A stretch of DNA of 41,819 nucleotides from a virus (lineage: Duplodnaviria > Heunggongvirae > Uroviricota > Caudoviricetes): the IMG/VR virus record IMGVR_UViG_2721755721_000002. One strand, written 5' to 3'. The notes beneath the pieces are model-generated. The model ran no database searches. It was not told the origin of the DNA and worked only from the letters and a program-made list of their open reading frames with translations. Made by a program: the position numbers and the translations under genes. Numbering within the stretch: the stretch's first letter is position 1; every line of letters begins with the position of its first letter. This document shows positions 175 through 34,711 of this stretch, piece by piece.

Positions 175-227
175 GGGCGGCAGAGCAGTCACGGAGTAAA
201 ACTGATACCGCCAAACGTCACCAGAAA
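175..227 (-). ncRNA. dicF: DicF small regulatory RNA (53 nt), followed on the minus strand by a T-run
   Basis: Reverse complement of 175-227 reads TTTCTGGTGACGTTTGGCGGTATCAGTTTTACTCCGTGACTGCTCTGCCGCCC, which I recognise from memory as E. coli DicF; it lies downstream of ydfA/B/C-like ORFs as in the Qin dicB operon. Not database-verified. Confidence 0.75.
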
Positions 228-1327: not shown

Positions 1328-1367
1328 TTTTTGATGTGTCTTAACTGGTGACTGGTTGTTTGGTGAG

Positions 1368-1787
1368 TTATGATGCGTTTTGTGCTTTCTTTTTACGGAT
1401 TTCTTCGTAGATCATATTGTAATACTGTTTTTTCTCTTCAAGAGTTTTTAATAAGTTATCCGCTTCACTTTCTGGCAGTTCGTCTAAGAGATCTAAAAAA
1501 ATACGTTGTCGTGGCGTTAGAACCCTTGTTTCATAATTGGAGGCTGTGTTCGTTGATGATGAAACGATACCATCCATCCATCCCCGGGGTAACCCAAAGG
1601 ACTCTTCTATAATCTCCACCATATCATCAGCGATCCGTTTTTTTCCTTTTTTCCCCTCTGGGTACAACATTCTTGATACATAAGAAGGCTCGCGACCGAT
1701 CTTTCTGGCCACGTTAACCGCTTTACCATCGCATTTCTCATCACGAATTTTGATGAGTTGTTGTCGTCTAAATTCATATTTGTCCAT
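1368..1787 (-). CDS. Prophage repressor, DicA/CI-like HTH protein (139 aa from internal Met)
   Basis: HTH-like segment VNVARKIGREPSYVSRML; C-terminal FLDLLDELPESEADNLL resembles the DicA C-terminus from memory; divergent from a Cro-like gene. Track ORF starts at TTG 1829; ATG at 1787 preferred. Confidence 0.65.
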   Translation of the reverse strand: MDKYEFRRQQLIKIRDEKCDGKAVNVARKIGREPSYVSRMLYPEGKKGKKRIADDMVEIIEESFGLPRGWMDGIVSSSTNTASNYETRVLTPRQRIFLDLLDELPESEADNLLKTLEEKKQYYNMIYEEIRKKKAQNAS

Positions 1788-1807
1788 AGGTAAATAATAG
1801 ATGCGAT

Positions 1808-1860
1808 TACCGCAAGGTAAACAACCCAAGGGTATTGACTTTTGTTTACCTGTGGGTATT
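1808..1860. promoter_or_regulatory. Divergent promoter/operator region with three imperfect dyads related to TACCC-N2-GGGTA
   Basis: TTACCGCAAGGTAA (1808-1821), AACCCAAGGGTAT (1823-1835), TACCTGTGGGTA (1848-1859) in the 100-bp gap between repressor and Cro-like starts. Confidence 0.4.
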
Positions 1861-1887
1861 CTTTGCTGTGTTTACTAAGGAGTAGCT

Positions 1888-2169
1888 ATGGAAGAATTAA
1901 GAATATTTCTCAATTCTCTTTCGTCAGATGAACAGCGTATGTTTGCATGTGAGTGTGGTACTAGCATCGGTTATCTAAGAAAGGCATTGAGTAAAGGTCA
2001 AATGTTAGGGGCATCGTTATGTGTCCTTATTGAGCGAGCCAGTAATGGTGAAGTTACACGTCAGCAACTAAGGCCTTTTGATTGGATGAATATTTGGCCC
2101 GAGCTGGAAGATACCAAAACGTTAACACAACCACTTACTAGGAGCTTGATTCATGAAAATCAAGCATGA
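1888..2169 (+). CDS. Cro/DicC/YdaS-like small HTH regulator (93 aa)
   Basis: Small ORF divergent from the repressor; HTH-like segment GTSIGYLRKALSKG; RBS AAGGAG upstream. Confidence 0.55.
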   Translation: MEELRIFLNSLSSDEQRMFACECGTSIGYLRKALSKGQMLGASLCVLIERASNGEVTRQQLRPFDWMNIWPELEDTKTLTQPLTRSLIHENQA

Positions 2170-2578
2170 ACACATCCGCATGGCGATGAATGCCTGGGCG
2201 CGTCCTGATGGCGAAAAAGTTCCAGCAGCTGGAATAACCCAGGCTTATTTTGAGTTGGGTATGACGTTTCCTGAACTGTATGACGACAGCCATCCGGAAG
2301 CCCTGGCTCGCAATACCCAGAAAATTTTCCGCTGGGTAGAGAAAGACACCCCTGATGCAGTTGAAAAAATTCAGGCGTTGTTACCAGCGATCGAAAAGGC
2401 AATGCCACCTTTGCTGGTGGCCAGAATGCGCAGCCACAGTTCAGCTTATTTTCGGGAGTTGGTGGAGACGCGGGAGCGACTGGTGAGAGACGCTGATGAT
2501 TTTGTCGCAGTGGCAATCGCCGGTTTCAATCAGATGAACCGTGGTGGCCCGGCAGGAAATGCTGTGGCAGTACATTGA
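2153..2578 (+). CDS. YdaT-like protein (141 aa)
   Basis: N-terminus MKIKHEHI... matches my memory of Rac YdaT; start overlaps the preceding gene as in ydaS-ydaT. Confidence 0.55.
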   Translation: MKIKHEHIRMAMNAWARPDGEKVPAAGITQAYFELGMTFPELYDDSHPEALARNTQKIFRWVEKDTPDAVEKIQALLPAIEKAMPPLLVARMRSHSSAYFRELVETRERLVRDADDFVAVAIAGFNQMNRGGPAGNAVAVH

Positions 2579-2643
2579 CTGACAATAGCCATATCGAATC
2601 GCTTCCGGCAATTCGTGAGTAAAAAGATTCGGTATCAGAAGAG

Positions 2644-3078
2644 GTGAGTATGGCTAACGCCTGGCTCAGATTATGGCATGACATGCCAAATGACCCTAAG
2701 TGGCGAACAATTGCCAGGGTGTCAGGGCAGCCAATTGCAACAGTGATGGCAGTGTATATCCACCTCCTGGTGAGCGCGTCACGAAATGTCACGCGAGGTC
2801 ACATTGATGTCACGACAGAAGATTTGGCAAGTGCGCTCGACGTGACAGAAGAGGTAATTGATTCAATTTTGCAGACGATGCAGGGGCGGGTACTTGATGG
2901 TGATTTAATCACTGGATGGGAAAAACGCCAGGTGCTTAAAGAGGACAACGGCAATATTTCGCAAACCGCAAAATCTCCGGCAGAGCGCAAGAGGGCGCAG
3001 CGTGAGAGGGAAAGAAAGCGGGAACAAAATGGCGATTGTCACGGCGCGTCACGAAATGTCACGCACATGTCACGATGA
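2644..3078 (+). CDS. Replication initiator (O-like / replisome organiser), N-terminal part, ending at an in-frame TGA
   Basis: 144-aa ORF; contains an iteron-like GTCACG cluster; same frame as ORF 3133..3720 with only one stop between them. Confidence 0.5.
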   Translation: MSMANAWLRLWHDMPNDPKWRTIARVSGQPIATVMAVYIHLLVSASRNVTRGHIDVTTEDLASALDVTEEVIDSILQTMQGRVLDGDLITGWEKRQVLKEDNGNISQTAKSPAERKRAQRERERKREQNGDCHGASRNVTHMSR

Positions 3079-3132
3079 GTCACGACAGATAAAGATACAG
3101 ATAGAGATACAGATAAAGAAGATCAAAACACT
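3043..3132. repeat. Candidate origin: four (T)GTCACG iterons at about 10-bp spacing followed by a purine-rich GATA(A/G)AGATACA repeat tract; a related iteron cluster lies at 2773-2819
   Basis: CGTCACGAAATGTCACGC is duplicated at 2776 and 3046; GATAAAGATACAGATAGAGATACAGATAAAGAAGATC follows the second cluster; location inside the replication gene resembles lambda ori inside O. Confidence 0.45.
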
Positions 3133-3720
3133 ATGGTCCATGGCGTAAAAAACGCCACGAACCATGTAGGGGATGTTCAGACCGTCACTCCTGGCCAGCC
3201 CGCAGGCACGACACCGGAAGCCGATTCAGCGTATGCGCTGAAAGCCGATTCGGGCGCTGTGCAGCAGGCGATGACCGCTGGGCCGGAGCAATCACACCAA
3301 CTGCAGCAGCCTGAAGCCGATTCCGCCATTCAGCGGGAAGCCGATCGGGTAGTCCCGGAAAACACCGGGCAGCCTGTGGGACGAGTGGATTATCCGGATG
3401 TGTTCGAACAGGTCTGGCGGGAATACCCGTTACGAGCCGGGGCAAACCCGAAGAAATCCGCTTTCAGTGCCTGGAAGGCCAGATTACGCGAGGGGGTGCC
3501 ACCAGAGGCCATGCTGGATGGTGTAAGGCGTTACACAAGATACCTGGCTGCTACCGGGAAAACGGGAACGGAATTTGTTCAGCGAGCGACGACGTTTTTT
3601 GGACCGGACCGGAATTTTGAAAACCCCTGGTTGCTCCCGGTAAGCGGCACGAACAACCAGCGTTGTGTTAATCATATTTCTGAACCGGACACCGAAATTC
3701 CGCCGGGATTCAGAGGGTAA
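3133..3720 (+). CDS. Replication initiator, C-terminal part (195 aa), in frame with 2644..3078
   Basis: Contains FEQVWREYPLRAGANPKKSAFSAWKARL, a motif I associate with phage/plasmid replication proteins; frame continuity with the upstream ORF. Confidence 0.45.
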   Translation: MVHGVKNATNHVGDVQTVTPGQPAGTTPEADSAYALKADSGAVQQAMTAGPEQSHQLQQPEADSAIQREADRVVPENTGQPVGRVDYPDVFEQVWREYPLRAGANPKKSAFSAWKARLREGVPPEAMLDGVRRYTRYLAATGKTGTEFVQRATTFFGPDRNFENPWLLPVSGTNNQRCVNHISEPDTEIPPGFRG

Positions 3721-3757
3721 CAGATTTCAGGTCATGGGGTAATTTTCAGGAGGGCTT

Positions 3758-4033
3758 GTGGCAAAAGTTTTTACTCCCGAACTGCGGGAAGAAGTGAAGG
3801 CGCGCATTGTGGAACTGGTACGCAGAGATGGGCGAAAAACGCGTAAACAACTGGAAAATGAAACCGGGGCGACGAGACACCTGATAGAAGTTCTGGTGAA
3901 AGAGCTGGTAGTTAGTGGCGCAGTATATGGTTCAGGACATGGAATATTTCCTTCGGAGCAGGCTCGTAAGGACTGGGGAAAAGCCCGCAAAAAAAATGTC
4001 GAGAGCGGCAGTGAAAAAGAAGAGCGACCCTGA
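3758..4033 (+). CDS. Hypothetical small basic protein (91 aa, GTG start)
   Basis: ORF with AGGAGG-like RBS; no family recognised; overlaps the next ORF across an A8 tract. Confidence 0.35.
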   Translation: MAKVFTPELREEVKARIVELVRRDGRKTRKQLENETGATRHLIEVLVKELVVSGAVYGSGHGIFPSEQARKDWGKARKKNVESGSEKEERP

Positions 4034-4166
4034 CCTGATTTATTCATTGCTAGATGGCGAAATACGCCGTTACAACAGACGACAGAATATAATTTGTCGC
4101 GAGTGTCGTCAGAGCGAAGTTATGCAGCGCATACTGGAATTTTATCAGGGAAATGTTCGGTATTAA
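3996..4166 (+). CDS. Hypothetical small protein with CxxC (57 aa from ATG 3996; track ORF from 3915)
   Basis: MSRAAVKKKSDPDLIYSLLDGEIRRYNRRQNIICRECRQSEV...; ATG lies at the end of the A8 run 3989-3996. Confidence 0.3.
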   Translation: MSRAAVKKKSDPDLIYSLLDGEIRRYNRRQNIICRECRQSEVMQRILEFYQGNVRY

Positions 4167-4409
4167 TTGAAGTGACGAAATTAAAGAGCATTAGTTCAGA
4201 TATTAATTGACACTTCGATGGCACAGGCCCAGACCTAGTCTGGTTGTCAGCTTTGAGCTAGGTGAACGTTGGTATCGTTAGTTTGTATTAATCAACGGAG
4301 AATAGGCCAAATGACTTTTCTTTGCCTCTTTTAATTATAATTCAAGTTCAATTGATTACATTGAAGTACTAATGTGAGTCCGTCAAACAAATAGCTCAAG
4401 GAATAGGTC

Positions 4410-7208
4410 ATGTGGGGAAGTGAAAACAAACAAAATCTGGACGTACTGGATCCTGTGCAGTTGGTGCGTATCGAAGCGGTACACCGGGGGTTCCTTTACC
4501 AGCATCTTTACGCTGTAGGCTGCTTACTTTTGGCGCAGAGGGCAGCTATGGACTCAGTAACTGTCGAGCTTGATGAGGATATTGAGCTGAAATCCAAACA
4601 GGAACGTCTCTACATTCAGGTTAAAACCCGTTCAAAACCTATTATGCCCAACGATGTGTCGGGGGCTCTGGAGCGATTTGTAAAGCTCAGAAATGAGCAT
4701 ACTTCGGCAAACCGCGAAGGGGTGGCTTCTTTTGTGATTATTGTAAACCAGGCGCCTGGACCGCTGCTTCAGAAGATGATTGACGATAAAAAGCTTCCTT
4801 CTGATGTTCTTATTGTCTGGCCCCAGTCGACAGCTGGACGTCACCCGGCACTTCCGCCCGCATGGAGTACTCTGGCTGATGCGGCCACATGGTGTATCGC
4901 AGAAGCAGAAAAGCTGAAATTTTCACTATTGTCCCCAGAATCCTTGATTTGGAAGTTAGCAGGATTGGTTCAGCTTGCCGCCACCGGAGGCGATACCAAT
5001 GGACAACATACGTTTTTCACGGAAGAACTTACTGAACTATTTGAACAGTTGATCGTTCAGCTACAGGACTTTCCTGCACCACCAGCACTGTACCGCCCAC
5101 AGAACGAAGAACCTTCTCTCACATCTGGTGAGCGGATCCGTATCCTTTGTGGACTCTCAGGTGCAGGCAAGACAGCTTGGGCCGCACAGGCCGCATTACA
5201 CTCCACTGCACTTTGTGCTTATTACGACACCGGTGATCTTCCCGGTCCAGCTCTGGCCAGTACGCTGGTGCGCGAGATGGCTGCTAGATTTACAGCCCGT
5301 GACCAAGACGGTTTGCGCAGGATTTTGCTCCCCGGTGCCAGTGGTTTTGAGGCTCTTAGGAGTTTTGATACCTACCTGAAAGAGCAGGGTACCACCTTGG
5401 TGCTGGTTCTGGATAACGCCCATCGTGTACCTGCGGAAAATCTACTGGATGTTCTGAATGCAACTACACATATTCGTTTTGTGCTGTTGTGCCAGCCTCA
5501 CGAAAACGTTCGCGAACTGGAGGTCATGACGGGGCTACAGCGCGAGGGCCTGCAGGGATGGAATCTCGATACGGTAGCTGTCGTTGTAAACGATATCGGA
5601 GGATTTGCCACCGCTATGGGATACGAGCAGCTACGGGCTTACACTGGTGGTCTTCCCCTGTATGTAGAGAGCGCCGCAAAAATCGCCGTTTCTGATTATG
5701 AGCGTAATGTCGATGCTCTGTGTGCTGAACTCCAGCAACAAACCCATACTGCGGAAACCGCCCAAGAAATTATTCTGTCACGTGTATTTCAGGGATTTGA
5801 ATCACTACTTCAGAGCGCGCTGGCATTGTTCAGTCTCTCTGACGTAGGGCTGAGTCGCGAAGAGATTTCTACGCTCCTAATCAATTCGCTGAACATTTCA
5901 CCAAGCAGTGCTGCTTCTTTAATTAGGAAAATGCGCGCTACTGGCACTATTGAAATTTATGGAAACCAGACCCTGAAGGTACATGATGCTGTCAGGGGGC
6001 TAGGACTGCAACATCTGGAACTGATGGATCAGGGTATATCGAACAAAGCGCTACTAGCGCTGAAAGACCTTTTAGTTGAAAGTCTTCATAATACCCGCAA
6101 TACAAAACGGTTATCGTTGTTGACTCAACTTTATATTAAGCTCAATGATGTCACGACGTTGATCGAACTCTCAGGCCAAGAAATGTTTTATGAGATGGGC
6201 GTGACGGTCGACATTCTTGCAAGCTTGGAGCGTGCTGCAACATCGGACTTATTGGGACCTGTTCATAAATTCTGGGCATTGGATGGCCTTGTTTTCGTTG
6301 AGCTTAAAGACGGAATATCCGACCACATTGCTCAGAGGTTAAACATCATGGGAGCTTTACTTGCGGAGCACAAGTTCGGCTATCAAGAAGAGATGGCCTA
6401 TGCAATGAAACGAATGTTATTTTCGGCAGAAAGCAATGATGCACGAGAAGTTCAAAAGCTGGCACAGGAAGTCCGCCCCCAACTCCCAGATGAAGAACAT
6501 AAACGCATCTTTGACTACAACCATGCCATTGCACTCTGGAGATTAAAAAAACTCAAGGATGCTGAAACATTAAGCTGTAATGTTATACAAGGGTACTATT
6601 CTTTATTTGGTATCACACCTGCTGATGTCATAGGAAAAAACGCCGACGCATTATGGAAAACTATTAATCATTCCGAAAATATGCAGGAACACTTTAAACA
6701 TATGGCTGATGCTCTGGAGTTGCTGGCCAGAATTCGTGATGCGCAGGGAAAACTGTCACCATTACTGCGTATTCATTCGATGAAGTTCTACAATCTGGCC
6801 ATGGCCCCGGAATCCATGGTCAGGGTGGGCCAAGATCTGGCGGATGAGTTTGTTGCCATAAAGGATTACGACGGTGCCAAGGAAGTCATGGAGCAACATG
6901 TCCTGCCGGTTGTCAATGAGGCAGGTCTAGTACATCGACTGATTCAGGTTCGAAGCCAATACGCAGTCATATTAGCACTATCGGGTCAGCATAAAGCAGC
7001 TGATGTCGAAATGCAGCGCCTTGCTCCCTATATCGAAGGCCTCACAGGTGTACAGCGTCAAGAAATCCAAAATCAATCAAATTACATCGTACAGCTTGCC
7101 CATAAAGCAGCAAAGACTAAATTAACTGAAGTTTTTGGTGCGGTCGGCCGGAATGAACAATGCCCCTGTGGCTCGGGAATAAAGTACAAAAAATGTCACG
7201 GTGCCTGA
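4410..7208 (+). CDS. Large STAND-type P-loop NTPase with candidate N-terminal PD-(D/E)xK-like effector, C-terminal helical repeats and SEC-C zinc knuckle; putative single-gene antiphage protein
   Basis: 932-aa ORF; Walker A GLSGAGKT (aa 248-255), Walker B LVLVLDNAH (aa 330-338); N-terminal VELDEDIEL...YIQVKTRS; C-terminal CPCGSGIKYKKCHG; lower GC than flanking phage genes, AT-rich upstream. Confidence 0.75.
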   Translation: MWGSENKQNLDVLDPVQLVRIEAVHRGFLYQHLYAVGCLLLAQRAAMDSVTVELDEDIELKSKQERLYIQVKTRSKPIMPNDVSGALERFVKLRNEHTSANREGVASFVIIVNQAPGPLLQKMIDDKKLPSDVLIVWPQSTAGRHPALPPAWSTLADAATWCIAEAEKLKFSLLSPESLIWKLAGLVQLAATGGDTNGQHTFFTEELTELFEQLIVQLQDFPAPPALYRPQNEEPSLTSGERIRILCGLSGAGKTAWAAQAALHSTALCAYYDTGDLPGPALASTLVREMAARFTARDQDGLRRILLPGASGFEALRSFDTYLKEQGTTLVLVLDNAHRVPAENLLDVLNATTHIRFVLLCQPHENVRELEVMTGLQREGLQGWNLDTVAVVVNDIGGFATAMGYEQLRAYTGGLPLYVESAAKIAVSDYERNVDALCAELQQQTHTAETAQEIILSRVFQGFESLLQSALALFSLSDVGLSREEISTLLINSLNISPSSAASLIRKMRATGTIEIYGNQTLKVHDAVRGLGLQHLELMDQGISNKALLALKDLLVESLHNTRNTKRLSLLTQLYIKLNDVTTLIELSGQEMFYEMGVTVDILASLERAATSDLLGPVHKFWALDGLVFVELKDGISDHIAQRLNIMGALLAEHKFGYQEEMAYAMKRMLFSAESNDAREVQKLAQEVRPQLPDEEHKRIFDYNHAIALWRLKKLKDAETLSCNVIQGYYSLFGITPADVIGKNADALWKTINHSENMQEHFKHMADALELLARIRDAQGKLSPLLRIHSMKFYNLAMAPESMVRVGQDLADEFVAIKDYDGAKEVMEQHVLPVVNEAGLVHRLIQVRSQYAVILALSGQHKAADVEMQRLAPYIEGLTGVQRQEIQNQSNYIVQLAHKAAKTKLTEVFGAVGRNEQCPCGSGIKYKKCHGA

Positions 7209-7485
7209 GTCTTTGTACGACCATGCGGGCCTTATTGTCTTGCTATTGCTCTTATGGTTCGCCTTTCTGATTGATTTCATATTGGCGAGGTGACGGGAGT
7301 TAAGTAGAATGGCTGCGGGTGCTTGAGGCTATCTGTCTCAGGCATGAACACCAAAGGCAGATAGAGAAAAGCCCCAGTTAACATTACGCGTCCTGCAAGA
7401 CGCTTAACATTAATCTGAGGCTCAATCTATGAACGGCAAATCTAGGTTAGCCTCTTACGTGCCGAAAGGCAAGGAGAAGCAGGCT

Positions 7486-7641
7486 ATGAAGCAGCAAAAG
7501 GCGATGTTAATCGTCCTGATCGTCATCTGTTTAACCGTCATAGTGACGGCACTGGTAACGAGGAAAGACCTCTGCGAGGTACGAATCCGAACCGGCCAGA
7601 CGGAGGTCGCTGTCTTCACAGCTTACGAACCTGAGGAGTAA
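7486..7641 (+). CDS. hok: Hok/Gef-family type I toxin (51 aa)
   Basis: MKQQKAMLIVLIVICLTVIVTALVTRKDLCEVRIRTGQTEVAVFTAYEPEE is near-identical to HokD/RelF as I remember it; AAGGAG RBS; the track ORF 7429.. is an in-frame upstream extension. Confidence 0.85.
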   Translation: MKQQKAMLIVLIVICLTVIVTALVTRKDLCEVRIRTGQTEVAVFTAYEPEE

Positions 7642-7710
7642 GAGACCAGGCGGGGGAGAAATCCCTCGCCACCTCTGATGTGTCAGGCATCCTCAATGCA
7701 CCCGCACTTA

Positions 7711-7737
7711 ACCCGCTTCGGCGGGTTTTGTTTTTTC
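7711..7737 (+). terminator. Rho-independent terminator after hok
   Basis: ACCCGC-TTCG-GCGGGT hairpin followed by TTTTGTTTTTT. Confidence 0.55.
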
Positions 7738-7808
7738 CTGGCATTCTGGTTTACAATTCGCACGCCAGCCTGAACAACTGGCACCTGCTGCGCCAGCAGA
7801 GACAACCG

Positions 7809-8087
7809 ATGGCGCACGATACCAAATTACACAATTCTAATGATTCTGCTGTCTTTGCCAGCAGGTGCGGACGGCGTTTTCACGCATTCACATCAGACTG
7901 GTTCCAGCATCCTCCATGCACTGAAGAGCAGGCTGAATGGATAATTCAGTGTTACCGCAGGCGTGGATACGAGGTTAAGAAAGCTCTTAGTCTCGACTAT
8001 CGTCACTGGATAATCTCAGTCAGACTCCCTTACTCCGAACGCCCACCGCGTCCGTCCCGCACATTCCAGCAACGCATCTGGAGGTAA
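7809..8087 (+). CDS. Hypothetical protein (92 aa from ATG 7809)
   Basis: The track ORF 7680.. would run through the hok terminator hairpin, so the internal ATG is preferred; no family recognised. Confidence 0.35.
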   Translation: MAHDTKLHNSNDSAVFASRCGRRFHAFTSDWFQHPPCTEEQAEWIIQCYRRRGYEVKKALSLDYRHWIISVRLPYSERPPRPSRTFQQRIWR

Positions 8088-8088
8088 C

Positions 8089-9144
8089 GTGCGGGTATTA
8101 CTTCGACCTGTTCTGGTACCGGAACTCGGGCTGGTGATCGTTAAGCCGGGCCGTGAATCCATGCCGGTATTCCACAATACCCGGGTACTGGTGGAGCCGG
8201 AACCGAAAAGCATGCGTAATCTGCCGTCCGGGGTCGTTCCTGCCGTTCGCCAGCCGCTGGTGGAAGACAAAACATTGCTGCCGTTTTTCAGTAACGCACG
8301 GGTGATTCGTGCTGCTGGTGGTGCTGGTGCATTGTCTGACTGGCTGTTGCGCCATATTAAATCCTGCCAGTGGCCACACGGCGATTATCATCACAGCGAA
8401 ACCGTCATTCACCGTTATGGTACCGGCGCAATGGTGTTGTGCTGGCACTGCGACAACCAGTTGCGTGACCAGACCTCCGAATCACTCGGGCAACTTGCTC
8501 ATCAAAACCTGTCAGCATGGATGATTGACGTCATCGGTCACGCAATAAGCGGTACGCAGGAGCGTGAATTATCTCTGGCTGAATTATCCTGGTGGGCGGT
8601 CCGCAATCAGGTGGCGGACGCGCTACCGGAAGCGGTATTACGTCGTTCGCTGGGGTTGCGTGCGGAAAAAATCCGCTCAATGTACCGTGAAAGCGACATC
8701 GTGCCGGGAGAGCAGACCGCCACCAGCATACTGAAGCAGCGCACAAAAAATCTTGCGCCGATGCCTCACGCCCACCAGCAAAACCCGCCACAGGAAAAGA
8801 CGGTGGTAAGCATTGCCGTTGATCCGGAGTCACCGGCTCAGTATCTCCAGCGCCAGAAACCACAACGGGAAGAGATGCCCGTATACACGCGCTGGGTAAA
8901 AACGCAGAAATGCATGACGTGTGACAATCAGGCAGATGATCCGCATCACATCATTGGTCATGGACTAGGAGGGATGGGAACGAAGGCTGACGATTTGTTT
9001 GTTATTCCGCTGTGCCGTAAATGTCATAACGAACTGCACGCCGGGGTAAAAGATTTTGAAGAAAAACACGGCAGCCAGCTGTTGTTGCTGATTCGTTTTT
9101 TAATGCACGCGAGAAATTCGGGCGTCCTGAAGTGGAAAGCATAA
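8089..9144 (+). CDS. DUF968 / YdfU-like protein with C-terminal HNH-like zinc motif
   Basis: 351-aa ORF before rusA and Q, as ydfU is in Qin; C-terminal CMTCDNQADDPHHIIGH...CRKCHNELH resembles an HNH/zinc-finger signature. Confidence 0.5.
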   Translation: MRVLLRPVLVPELGLVIVKPGRESMPVFHNTRVLVEPEPKSMRNLPSGVVPAVRQPLVEDKTLLPFFSNARVIRAAGGAGALSDWLLRHIKSCQWPHGDYHHSETVIHRYGTGAMVLCWHCDNQLRDQTSESLGQLAHQNLSAWMIDVIGHAISGTQERELSLAELSWWAVRNQVADALPEAVLRRSLGLRAEKIRSMYRESDIVPGEQTATSILKQRTKNLAPMPHAHQQNPPQEKTVVSIAVDPESPAQYLQRQKPQREEMPVYTRWVKTQKCMTCDNQADDPHHIIGHGLGGMGTKADDLFVIPLCRKCHNELHAGVKDFEEKHGSQLLLLIRFLMHARNSGVLKWKA

Positions 9145-9510
9145 ATGACTGAACGCATAGAATTTGTTTTGCCTTACCCGCCAACGGTGAATACTTACTG
9201 GCGACGTCGTGGCAGCACATATTTTGTATCAAAAGTCGGTGAGCGTTATCGCCGTGATGTGGCACTAATTGTTCGCCAGCAGCGGTTGAAATTAAACCTG
9301 TCCGGAAGGCTGGCAATAAAAATTATTGCAGAGCCACCGGATAAGCGCCGTCGTGACCTGGACAATATCCTGAAGGCACCACTGGATGCACTGACGCATG
9401 CGGGGCTGCTCATAGACGACGAGCAGTTTGATGAAATCAATATTGTGCGCGGTCAGCTTGTTCCTGGTGGGCGGTTGGGGATAAAAATCACAGAACTGGG
9501 GTGCGCATGA
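9145..9510 (+). CDS. rusA: RusA-like Holliday junction resolvase
   Basis: 120 aa; VLPYPPTVNTYW...RRRDLDNILKAPLDALTHAGLLIDD parallels E. coli RusA from memory. Confidence 0.85.
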   Translation: MTERIEFVLPYPPTVNTYWRRRGSTYFVSKVGERYRRDVALIVRQQRLKLNLSGRLAIKIIAEPPDKRRRDLDNILKAPLDALTHAGLLIDDEQFDEINIVRGQLVPGGRLGIKITELGCA

Positions 9511-10196
9511 ATAACCAGTATTTACAGTTTGTGCGTGAGCAGCTCATTATCGCCACCGCTGATTTGAGTGGGGCAACAAAAGGTCAGCTTGAAGCCTGGC
9601 AGGAGAATGCCATGTTCGATACAGGGCGTTACAGGCGTAAAAAAATCCGGTACCGCGATGAAGTGACTGGAAAAATGATAACGCGGGATAATCCCCCAAT
9701 CCCGGGAAAGCAATCGCTGGCGAAGGGGACGTCAATTCCTCTGGTCAGTCCGATTGAGTTTTCGACATCATCGTGGCGGCGGGCTGTTCTGTCTCTTGAA
9801 GAACATCATAAAGCCTGGTTGTTGTGGTGTTACAGCGGGAGTATTTGTTGGGAATATCAGATCGCGATAACACAGTGGGCGTGGAATGAATTTAATACTC
9901 AATCCGGTACCAGAAAAATTGCAGGGAAAACGCAGGAACGCCTGAAAAAATTAATCTGGCTGGCGGCGCAGGCAGTAAAAGCAGAACTTTTTGGTGGGGA
10001 AGGTTATGAATACAAGGAGCTGGCATTACTGGTGGGAGTGACAACTAAAAACTGGTCCAAAACATTTACTCGTCACTGGGTTGCAATGAAACACATTTTT
10101 CACCGACTGGATAGTGAGGCTTTATTGTTTGTAATGAGAACGCGTTCAAAACAAAAGGCGGCATTTTCAAAGCAAAGTGTTGCAAAAGTAGATTGA
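9507..10196 (+). CDS. Late-gene antiterminator Q-like protein
   Basis: 229-aa ORF overlapping the rusA stop (ATGA), directly upstream of a strong terminator and the tRNA/late region; family assignment is by position. Confidence 0.55.
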   Translation: MNNQYLQFVREQLIIATADLSGATKGQLEAWQENAMFDTGRYRRKKIRYRDEVTGKMITRDNPPIPGKQSLAKGTSIPLVSPIEFSTSSWRRAVLSLEEHHKAWLLWCYSGSICWEYQIAITQWAWNEFNTQSGTRKIAGKTQERLKKLIWLAAQAVKAELFGGEGYEYKELALLVGVTTKNWSKTFTRHWVAMKHIFHRLDSEALLFVMRTRSKQKAAFSKQSVAKVD

Positions 10197-10406: not shown

Positions 10407-10482
10407 GGCCCTTTAGCTCAGTGGTGAGAGCGAGCGACTCATAATCGCCAGGCCGCTGGTTCAAATCCAGCAAGGGCCACCA
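10407..10482 (+). tRNA. tRNA with CAU anticodon (Ile2-lysidine or Met type), encoded CCA
   Basis: Cloverleaf by hand: acceptor GGCCCTT/AAGGGCC, D-stem GCTC/GAGC, anticodon loop CTCATAA, T-arm GCTGG-TTCAAAT-CCAGC. Confidence 0.8.
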
Positions 10483-10489
10483 TCACATA

Positions 10490-10566
10490 CCGCCATTAGC
10501 TCATCGGGATAGAACGCCAGCCTTCGAAGCTGGTTTCGCGGGGTTCGAGTCTCCGATGGCGGTCCA
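10490..10566 (+). tRNA. tRNA-Arg (anticodon UCG), encoded CCA
   Basis: Acceptor CCGCCAT/ATGGCGG, anticodon arm CCAGC-CTTCGAA-GCTGG, T-arm CGGGG-TTCGAGT-CTCCG. Confidence 0.7.
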
Positions 10567-10579
10567 TTATCGGTATTCT

Positions 10580-10656
10580 GCGTTTTTAGCTCAGCCGGAC
10601 AGAGCAATTGCCTTCTAAGCAATCGGTCACTGGTTCGAACCCAGTACAACGCACCA
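10580..10656 (+). tRNA. tRNA-Arg (anticodon UCU), encoded CCA
   Basis: Anticodon arm ATTGC-CTTCTAA-GCAAT, T-arm ACTGG-TTCGAAC-CCAGT, D-stem GCTC/GAGC; one acceptor-stem mismatch. Confidence 0.7.
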
Positions 10657-10826: not shown

Positions 10827-11258
10827 TGTTTGGTATTTTTGGTAAAAAAAGCCCGCAGAGCGGCAACGGAAATTAGAAAGTTTGAAAAACGCGATCTGGC
10901 ACAGGTGGTGATTAACGCCGCATACCTGGTGGCCTGTGCAGATGGTGAATGTGAGGCTTCCTAGAAAGCGAAGATCGAACAGGTACTGCGTAATCAGCCT
11001 GCGCTGTACGCGTTTACGTCAGAAATTAATGCGATTAGCGCAACCATTATCGGTCAGCTGGATACGAACTTTAAAACTGGTCGTCGTGCGGCGTTACGTG
11101 AGATCGAGGATGTGAAACACGATACGCGTGAAGCGGAAGATGTGCTGGATGTGGCGGTGGCCATTGCGGAGGCAGACGGCGAAATTGAGCCGGAAGAGCG
11201 CAAGGTGCTGGAAGAGATTGCCGGTGTTCTGGGTCTTCGTCTGGAGAATTACCTGTGA
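10827..11258 (+). pseudogene. TerB-like (tellurite-resistance family) gene remnant, disrupted by a frameshift and an in-frame TAG
   Basis: Frame 2 gives ...LAQVVINAAYLVACADGECEAS*KAKIEQVLRNQ...AIAEADGEIEPEERKVLEEIAGVLGL; the ATG frame stops after 16 codons near an A7 run; TAG at 10961-10963. Confidence 0.5.
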
Positions 11259-11422: not shown

Positions 11423-11623
11423 TTTTTTTGTTTGCTGTTTATTAAAAACACTTCTGCATGGTGAATCCCCCTGTGCGGTGGGGCAATCAGCAAGAAGGAA
11501 TATGGGGTAATCGCGGATTCAGGTGCTGATACTGAATTCACCGGGAGGCACCCGGCACCATGCTTTGCCACAAAAGTGTTATTTCTGTTTTTCTCAAACT
11601 ATCATCGTTATCCCTTTATTTTC

Positions 11624-33217: not shown

Positions 33218-33336
33218 AAGCGAAAAAATCCCGCAGTGCTCACGGACAGGAACTGCGGGAGCGTTACGAAGATTGAGTGTAAGGAATTATTCTTATGTCA
33301 CGACAAAAACATTAACTCAGAGGTAATGACTCCAAC

Positions 33337-33702
33337 TTATTGATAGTGTTTTATGTTCAGATAATGCCCGATGACTTTGTCATGCAGCTCCACCGATTTT
33401 GAGAACGACAGCGACTTCCGTCCCAGCCGTGCCAGGTGCTGCCTCAGATTCAGGTTATGCCGCTCAATTCGCTGAGTGTAACGCTTGCTGATTACGTGCA
33501 GCTTTCCCTTCAGGCGGGATTCATACAGCGGCCAGCCATCCGTCATCCATATCACCACGTCAAAGGGTGACAGCAGGCTCATAAGAAGCCCCAGCGTCGC
33601 CATCGTGCGTTCACCGAATACGTGCGCAACAACCGTCTTCCGGAGCCTGTCATACGCGTAAAACAGCCAGCGCTGGCGCGATTTAGCCCCGACTAGCCCC
33701 AC
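33337..33702 (-). CDS. insB: IS1 InsB transposase reading frame
   Basis: [34 protein letters not shown]...[42 protein letters not shown] matches IS1 InsB. Confidence 0.9.
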
Positions 33703-33757
33703 TGTTCGTCCATTTCCGCGCAGACGATGACGTCACTGCCCGGCTGTATGCGCGAGG

Positions 33758-34033
33758 TTACCGACTGCGGCCTGAGTTTTTTAAGTGACGTAAAATCGTG
33801 TTGAGGCCAACGCCCATAATGCGGGCTGTTGCCCGGCATCCAACGCCATTCATGGCCATATCAATGATTTTCTGGTGCGTACCGGGCTGAGAAGCGGTGT
33901 AAGTGAACTGCAGTTGCCATGTTTTACGGCAGTGAGAGCAGAGATAGCGCTGATGTCCGGCAGTGCTTTTGCCGTTACGCACCACCCCGTCAGTAGCTGA
34001 ACAGGAGGGACAGCTGATAGAAACAGAAGCCAC
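33758..34033 (-). CDS. insA: IS1 InsA
   Basis: (M)[50 protein letters not shown]... matches IS1 InsA; GTG start. Confidence 0.9.
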
Positions 34034-34154
34034 AGGAGCACCTCAAAAACACCATCATACACTAAATCAGTAAGTTGGCAGCATCACCTAACTCAGAGAG
34101 GGAGGATGTGCCGTTCTTTTCAGGGAGAAAGGATTTATCGTCCTGAGGAATAAA

Positions 34155-34183: not shown

Positions 34184-34711
34184 TTATTGAATGATGCCGC
34201 AGGCCATTCTCGCACCACCACCGCCCAGGGGCTCCGGATGGTCATGATGGTTATCACCGCCAGCATGAAGCATGAGAGAACGCCCTTTAATCTCTTTTAA
34301 TGAGTTCAGTCTCGGGGCCAGGACCGGGTAGTTCGCTTTTCCGTCATGCGTCACGAACAGCGCAGGGAGGTCGCCCAGGTGTCCATCCGGAGACCAGGGG
34401 CCAAGATGTTTGCCGGTGTTTTTCGGGTCAAAGTGACCGCCAGCCGATAATGCTGCGACCGGTTTTCCGTCTTTCAGTGCCGGGGCGCAATTTCCTTTTT
34501 CGTGCACATGAAAACCATGAATGCCTTCAGACAGAGAGTGAAGGGCTGGTGTGAACAGCAGACCGTAGGGGGTCTCCTGAATGGTTATTTTTCCAATGCT
34601 GACTTCTTTTCCGTCAGCACTGACAAGGTTCATTGGGACTTCCTGTTCTGCTGCGTATCCGCATGATGCTGCTGTCAGCATGGCAATGGCAGCAATGATT
34701 TTACATTTCAT
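34184..34711 (-). CDS. sodC: Periplasmic Cu,Zn superoxide dismutase (SodC), prophage moron
   Basis: [20 protein letters not shown] signal peptide; [29 protein letters not shown] are Cu,Zn-SOD signatures. The track ORF runs on to 35218 antisense to J; the real start is the internal ATG. Confidence 0.85.

Follow-up and report, generated by a model that had tools for sequence, protein, structure and literature searches.

A premature TGA in the replication initiator gene of a lambdoid Escherichia coli prophage, probably a recent nonsense mutation within a presumed internal origin

The two open reading frames located between positions 2644 and 3720 of the window (the whole stretch of viral DNA analyzed here, 41,819 nucleotides in length) appear to be one gene, encoding the replication initiator of a lambdoid Escherichia coli prophage that also carries T3SS effector genes, and this gene has most probably been inactivated by a recent C-to-T change; a probability of approximately 0.88 is assigned to this explanation as a whole. 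Judged by comparison with its relatives, the broken initiator seems to be an ordinary, young and lineage-specific pseudogene of a well-populated family. The two ORFs are better annotated as a single pseudogene that contains an internal stop than as two genes, and the stop has little importance beyond this. The family itself is widespread in E. coli and, with its presumed internal origin, DnaT-like tail and lack of a loader gene, might reward further work more than the stop codon would; to our knowledge, no biochemical study of this initiator family has been reported so far.

One gene interrupted at codon 143

Translation of positions 2644-3720 in one frame yielded 359 codons with a single internal stop, the TGA at 3076-3078. 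The 54 nt between the two ORFs (3079-3132) were open, with the frame unbroken and no in-frame start within them, and the first in-frame ATG of the 3' part was found at 3133. These results bear out the first-pass annotation, which had described two ORFs in one frame split by a lone TGA. Its description of an otherwise 358-codon gene was right as to a single open gene and needed correction as to length: the start annotated in homologues is not GTG 2644 but ATG 2650, preceded by a good SD (pairing energy of -7.1 kcal/mol), so that the intact initiator gene has 356 codons (2650-3720). Numbered from this start, the stop occupies codon 143 and ATG 3133, further downstream, codon 162. The gene lies on the plus strand and is thus divided into a 5' part (codons 1-142, 2650-3075), delimited by its profile match, the pLDDT of the predicted structure and the SD; the premature TGA, which comparison with relatives traces to Arg143 CGA through C-to-T at 3076; and a 3' part (codons 144-356, 3079-3720), delimited by its profile match and pLDDT and comprising the rest of the linker and the C-terminal domain. 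The repaired protein matched phrog_3729, annotated as 'replication initiation protein', over positions 1-356 of 356 (E = 5.5e-253), and the two parts matched the same profile separately, at 1-142 of 356 for the 5' part (E = 3e-99) and 162-356 for the 3' part (E = 1.5e-133).

A region corresponding to the 1,077 nt was detected at ~97% identity in 1,647 complete E. coli genomes and seven phage records, and the family is present in about 30% of complete E. coli genomes. One uninterrupted CDS of 1071 nt has been annotated in phages Tritos, Evi and vB_EcoS-640R1 as well as in two E. coli chromosomes. An alignment with intact homologues, which had been asked for in the first-pass annotation, was made at base level from the window and five E. 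coli and phage relatives, including Tritos; it placed the TGA opposite the Arg codon CGA in Tritos, Evi and 640R1 and opposite CAA (Gln) in one strain, 2013C-3492. Compared with strain Z1322HEC0003 (NZ_CP148579.1), the closest complete genome, C-to-T at 3076 was the sole change not only in the 1,077 nt but also over window positions 1333-8402 (7 kb). Among 80 loci fetched from IMG/VR, 69 had a complete gene; residue 143 was Arg in every one of these 69, 67 were uninterrupted from the MANAWLRL start, and 54 encoded exactly 356 aa. Full-length homologues at 46-60% identity were also single proteins (302-376 aa), with R, Q, S, H or K at the corresponding site and no stop. The orthologues therefore have a sense codon where the window has a non-conserved stop created by one base, and the part behind it has no translation signals of its own. 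Taken together, these comparisons argue strongly that the stop arose as a recent C-to-T nonsense mutation from CGA (Arg143) to TGA. A Dcm hotspot (CCWGG) was considered as the cause of this transition and rejected, as the context of position 3076 is GACGAG.

Domain architecture, iterons and the presumed origin

Structure prediction by AlphaFold from an alignment of 18 sequences gave usable domain boundaries within an overall model that was poor (pLDDT 58, pTM 0.30). A helical N-terminal domain was predicted at approximately residues 1-80 (pLDDT about 57-85), followed by a basic helix at residues 110-127, a low-confidence linker at residues 128-244 which contains both the codon 143 stop and Met162, and a helical C-domain at residues ~245-332 (pLDDT 74-93). 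In intact relatives, both terminal domains are conserved. Searching PDB with Foldseek returned nothing with E < 1 and only low-probability winged-helix regulators, so no fold was assigned. Similarly, no Pfam family was found for either half at E <= 0.01, and at E <= 1 HTH_Crp_2 and Phage_rep_org_N were alone, both sub-threshold; neither half had a match in PADLOC. The alignments to the phage_rep_org_N models span the whole profile with scores below their cut-offs (12.8 vs 23.3 bits for PF09681 and 18.7 vs 49.8 bits for TIGR01714), and homologues are named 'phage replisome organizer' by NCBI, making a distant kinship to the phage replisome organizer N-terminal domain plausible. Each module was also found joined to other partners, the N-module to different C-modules and the C-module to different N-modules, indicating that they are separable units; in Pseudomonas phages, the N-module occurs upstream of a primase/helicase gene.

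The DNA encoding this protein contains nine GTCACG-type copies within ~310 bp, arranged in two clusters. Cluster 1 (2778-2846, plus strand), recognized by its GTCACG/A copies and one inverted copy, lies inside the region encoding the N-domain, with copies at 2778, 2788, 2798 (GTCACA) and 2809 and the inverted copy at 2841-2846. Cluster 2 (3038-3084, plus strand), which is presumed to be the origin core, consists of five direct GTCACG copies at 3038, 3048, 3058, 3069 and 3079 with a spacing of 10-11 bp. The hexamer is more frequent in the window than expected (35 occurrences vs 19.95 +/- 4.4 in shuffles), and five copies in 47 bp are far beyond chance, since the shuffle density predicts ~0.02 copies per 47 bp, and all five hexamers of cluster 2 were invariant across six aligned sequences. 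The iterons are adjoined by a stretch at 3089-3135 (plus strand) of 72% A+T with GATA[AC]AGATACA repeats, whose composition suggests an unwinding element; it encodes an acidic DKDTD linker and differs in length among homologues. Iterons and an adjoining A+T-rich element are thus present within the coding sequence and between two domains, as in a lambda-type layout, cluster 2 and the A+T-rich repeats being situated in the DNA of the linker, whose length also varies among homologues. Distant homologues have other repeated peptides at both iteron places, and some have an additional unit in the region of cluster 1; differing repeats at the same two places would be expected if the iterons and the binding domain co-evolve. 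As proposed in the first-pass annotation, the stop was confirmed to lie inside the iteron cluster, flanked by copies 4 and 5 (CATGTCACGA-TGA-GTCACGACAG). Base 3076 occupies a spacer position that is variable among iterons and strains and, because the changed base sits in such a spacer, the origin DNA is probably intact in cis.

The last 24 residues of the initiator (window 3649-3720; …NHISEPDTEIPPGFRG / NNQRCVNHISEPDTEIPPGFRG) share 15 of 24 identities with the C-terminus of host DnaT (E = 0.018-0.065). The likeness is confined to this tail: the DnaT equivalog NF002770 scored 18-19 bits, far under its 201-bit cut-off, and at profile positions 156-179 alone, so the initiator was not accepted as a DnaT homologue; no match to the DnaT domain PF17948 was found in this C-module, and when PDB sequences were searched with a profile, the tail similarity was not extended and the match disappeared. 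It is marginal and should be taken only as a lead. In sister initiators that have another C-module, the Pfam DnaT DNA-binding domain PF17948 is present instead, and the C-terminal domain of DnaT is known to dock on PriA and to form filaments on single-stranded DNA (PMC13377028). The DnaT-like tail and the PF17948 domain may be two ways into the host restart primosome.

In phage lambda, ori-lambda is located within the O gene and has four 19-bp repeats. The window initiator resembles lambda O in its place in the early rightward operon after cro and cII analogues, in having iterons and an A+T-rich stretch in a coding sequence that links a presumed N-terminal origin-binding module to a presumed C-terminal recruiting module, and in the swapping of modules among lambdoid phages. 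It differs in showing no recognizable sequence relationship to lambda O (no Pfam Phage_rep_O match was found even at E <= 1), in having iterons of ~10-11 bp in two clusters instead of four 19-bp repeats, in the absence of a P-like or DnaC-like loader gene downstream, and in being broken by a stop. By analogy, this initiator may function in the manner of lambda-type initiators whose origin is internal. The Stx phages POCJ13 and 75/02 share the same C-module in a gene named 'primosomal protein I' (82% nucleotide identity over window 3242-3720); they have another N-module, and downstream of their gene lies one of the IstB/DnaC AAA+ type (PF01695, E = 2.5e-18), for which the window family has no counterpart. 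The term 'initiator-solo' is reportedly used in a 2006 review for a class of replication modules; no use of the term was found in the literature searched, and it was not adopted as a classification here.

Consequences of the stop, the TGA allele and alternative readings

In the proposed working of the intact 356-aa protein, the N-domain would bind the GTCACG iterons in its own gene, a role to which the weak family matches point. The A+T-rich DNA would then open, and the C-domain would bring in the host helicase-loading machinery, since a loader is not encoded by the family itself. The stop would leave a 142-aa fragment with the presumed iteron-binding N-terminal module alone, and the C-terminal part, having no usable ribosome-binding site, would be untranslated or poorly translated: SD pairing at ATG 3133 was only -1.8 kcal/mol, the weakest nearby, vs -5.4 to -10.8 kcal/mol for neighbouring genes. 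With only the N-terminal fragment made, origin recognition would be uncoupled from helicase recruitment, and, once induced, the prophage would not be able to initiate its replication by itself. Several bypasses can be envisaged. Among stop codons, read-through in E. coli is most frequent at UGA, and some full-length protein may arise in this way; weak re-initiation might occur at ATG 3133, and the two halves might associate with each other; and an intact initiator of the same specificity could be supplied by a co-resident prophage, such complementation in trans being plausible because related initiator genes occur in up to four copies per genome. On balance, the prophage is likely to be replication-defective and otherwise intact. 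A replication-defective prophage had also been suggested in the first-pass annotation, and this remains a reasonable deduction from the stop itself, whereas the loader absence and the TerB pseudogene, which had been called upon as well, give it no support.

Although the TGA allele is rare, its occurrence outside the window indicates that it is real. An exact 60-mer centred on the TGA was found in none of 1,524 complete E. coli genomes having the stretch, and a 39-mer with the TGA had no match in IMG/VR, JGI metagenomes or GTDB representatives, compared with at least 120 IMG/VR matches for the 39-mer with CGA. A draft contig (GCA_017119405.1), said to occur in two samples, is identical to window 2818-9720 (6,903 nt) with the TGA included, and the exact 195-aa downstream ORF is on record in four contigs under three other accessions. 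Recurrence in a few independent draft assemblies thus implies a real allele that marks one lineage, and T3076 could serve as a handy marker for this E. coli lineage. Its persistence in several isolates means that it is not strongly selected against, as would be expected for a repressed prophage gene. The number of records of the 142-aa product (36 contigs, in a cluster of 1,121) is no measure of the TGA allele: among the eight places listed of the 36 contigs, seven were cut off within the iteron cluster by the end of their contig, and the intact C allele was present at all six of the places whose flank matched the probe. Likewise, six of eight draft contigs with the N-terminal half (L006-L009, L012 and L013) end exactly at the equivalent of position 3076 (…GTCACGAC). 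Assembly graphs evidently branch within the iteron cluster, the junction of the exchangeable N and C modules, and breaks at this junction have inflated the database counts of 'partial' 142-aa proteins. In addition, a separate lesion was found at the same codon in another contig (L011, 5256-6304; GCA_049982705.1), where a deletion between short repeats has joined GTCACGA to TAGATAAAG, creating a TAG and giving an identical 142-aa product together with a 195-aa ORF. Slippage seems to occur readily at the iteron and A+T repeats.

Several other readings of the stop have been weighed against a recent nonsense mutation. A broad one, which has a small chance of being correct, holds that the 142-aa fragment acts as an origin blocker, immobilizing the effector prophage or excluding related phages, and/or that the intact family is a loader-less initiator using the host PriA/PriB/DnaT-DnaB/DnaC restart pathway via its DnaT-like tail. 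A narrower proposal, that truncation has been selected and the iteron-binding fragment kept as a blocker which locks the prophage or excludes phages with the same iterons, is rather less probable. The fragment does retain the whole N-terminal module, the native promoter and the SD, the rest of the prophage is intact with its host-useful T3SS effector genes, and the independent deletion in L011 yields an identical product; however, this coincidence is more simply explained by repeat-mediated slippage at the iterons, and an allele so rare and so young gives no sign of spread or selection. Moreover, the early lytic operon of lambdoid phages is repressed in the lysogen, and the initiator belongs to this operon, in which it comes after the genes of the Cro-like and YdaT-like proteins, so repression would extend to the fragment.

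It is very unlikely that the two ORFs form a genuine two-protein arrangement, in which origin-binding and recruiting domains are made separately and act together. Both folded domains would remain whole, as the linker in which both the stop and ATG 3133 are located is predicted to be disordered, and split versions do exist in some (pro)phage genomes, given that PHROGs includes families of 157 aa matching the N-half alone (phrog_21423) or the C-half alone (phrog_18526); the gene of L011 was also split independently. But that lesion is of a different kind, a deletion leading to TAG, and points to recurrent decay rather than a common design, the downstream ORF of the window has no SD, and the stop, absent from the complete genomes, IMG/VR and metagenomes mentioned above, is separated from an intact allele by a single nucleotide in 7 kb of sequence that is identical at every other position. 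Furthermore, every functional or distant homologue is fused. Phage Tritos, for which plaques, propagation and electron microscopy images have been reported (PMC9928086), carries the single uninterrupted 1071-nt CDS, as do other phage records. The two-protein alternative, which the first-pass annotation had kept alongside the defective prophage, was rejected because functional phages have the fused gene, the opposite of a two-ORF layout with a conserved stop.

Equally slight is the chance of a sequencing or assembly error, by which the T at 3076 would be absent from the real genome. The difference is a single base within a short-repeat region at which draft assemblies frequently break; nevertheless, the typical mistake in such repeats is an indel and not a substitution, the same T is present in the independent assembly described above (GCA_017119405.1), identical over 6.9 kb, and the downstream ORF was called in the four contigs from three further accessions. 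Programmed recoding, in which the UGA would be read as selenocysteine (UGA being the codon used for Sec and the most prone to read-through) or by regulated read-through to give a full-length protein, is the least probable of all: apart from the open frame beyond a stop that happens to be UGA, it meets with an allele that is rare and one mutation old, with homologues that have Arg, Gln, Ser, His or Lys and never a stop at the site, and with an A-rich downstream RNA that folds no better than shuffled sequences (z = -0.73) and has no SECIS-like hairpin, so that a SECIS or read-through structure after the UGA was discarded. Low-level leakiness of the UGA without any programme is possible and belongs to the nonsense-mutation explanation.

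Neighbouring genes and the state of the prophage

Upstream of the initiator, the immunity and early operon region comprises a repressor gene (1368-1787, minus strand), a YdaS-like Cro gene (1888-2169, plus strand) and a YdaT-like cII analogue (2153-2578, plus strand), all 100% identical to those of Z1322HEC0003; the Cro and YdaT-like genes place the initiator in the early rightward operon. Downstream, no helicase-loader gene follows in the window: the initiator is succeeded by a DUF977 gene (3758-4166, plus strand; PF06163, E = 1.7e-14), which is frameshifted into ORFs of 91 aa and 83 aa, and then by the gene of a 932-aa SEC-C protein. The lack of a loader was therefore observed correctly in the first-pass annotation, where it had been read as pointing to a defect, yet it is normal for the family and no sign of decay, because plaque-forming Tritos also has none; 57 of 63 IMG/VR loci likewise have no DnaC-like gene within 3 kb, the remaining six having one. 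A DUF977 match was present at most 3 kb downstream in 61 of the 63 loci, with a median start 41 nt after the initiator, and this near-constant position suggests a role of DUF977 in replication. Tritos, which is prophage 3 of E. coli LF82, resembles the window in the order of repressor, Cro, YdaT-like gene, initiator and DUF977 and in its 97% nucleotide identity over the 1,077 nt; it differs in that codon 143 is CGA, DUF977 is intact (141 aa) and plaques are formed, whereas the window has the TGA and a frameshifted DUF977.

The TerB pseudogene, cited in the first-pass annotation as further evidence of a replication defect, fails to serve as such, TerB being unrelated to replication and the same lesion occurring in a relative with an intact initiator. 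This TerB-family gene (window 10830-11258) has one internal stop, is identical in Z1322HEC0003, where PGAP annotates it as a pseudogene, and adjoins three phage tRNA genes (10407-10653) and the sRNA STnc100 (11427-11599). The DUF977 frameshift is also found in Z1322HEC0003 and, as both lesions are common to this strain with its intact initiator, they tell nothing specific about the TGA allele.

The remainder of the prophage is well preserved. No internal stop was seen in 46 genes of the window whose counterparts in the relative are intact, among them those for terminase, portal, capsid, tail, lysis, Q and immunity, with gene Z aligned over 369 of 534 nt only. Compared with NZ_CP148579.1, the only window-specific lesions are the TGA and an IS1 insertion, so that what may be seen here is the earliest step of prophage domestication, amounting to one initiator base and one insertion. 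The cryptic prophages e14 and CPS-53 of E. coli K-12 carry decayed O-like pseudogenes; they are similar to the window in that a lambdoid initiator has been disabled by a point lesion and the element kept by the host, and different in that decay has just begun in the window, with one initiator base changed and the structural, lysis and regulatory genes intact. With its morphogenesis and lysis genes intact, the prophage bearing nleB2 and related effectors is probably unable to replicate alone. The IS1 copy (33322-34089) is intergenic, between the tail-assembly gene I and sodC (34184-34711, minus strand, within the tail-gene region), is absent from NZ_CP148579.1, and contains ORFs for InsA (33758-34033, minus strand) and an InsB-like protein (33337-33702, minus strand).

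Other cargo was also recorded. The 932-aa protein (window 4410-7208), encoded between the replication genes and hokD, has a C-terminal SEC-C motif and an N-terminus with a weak LmuA/Cap4-nuclease-like match in PADLOC (5e-07) and a weak AAA_22 match in Pfam; it is 100% identical in the relative and may be anti-phage defence cargo. Two RNAs typical of Qin-like prophages were detected at full Rfam score, the DicF antisense RNA (window 175-226, minus strand) and the sok antitoxin RNA of the hokD locus (7317-7491, plus strand). At the right end, the T3SS effector gene nleB2 (40839-41819, plus strand) is cut by the window edge, and the relative carries nleC, nleH and nleF beside nleB2, which together identify an effector-carrying prophage of an EPEC/EHEC-type strain.
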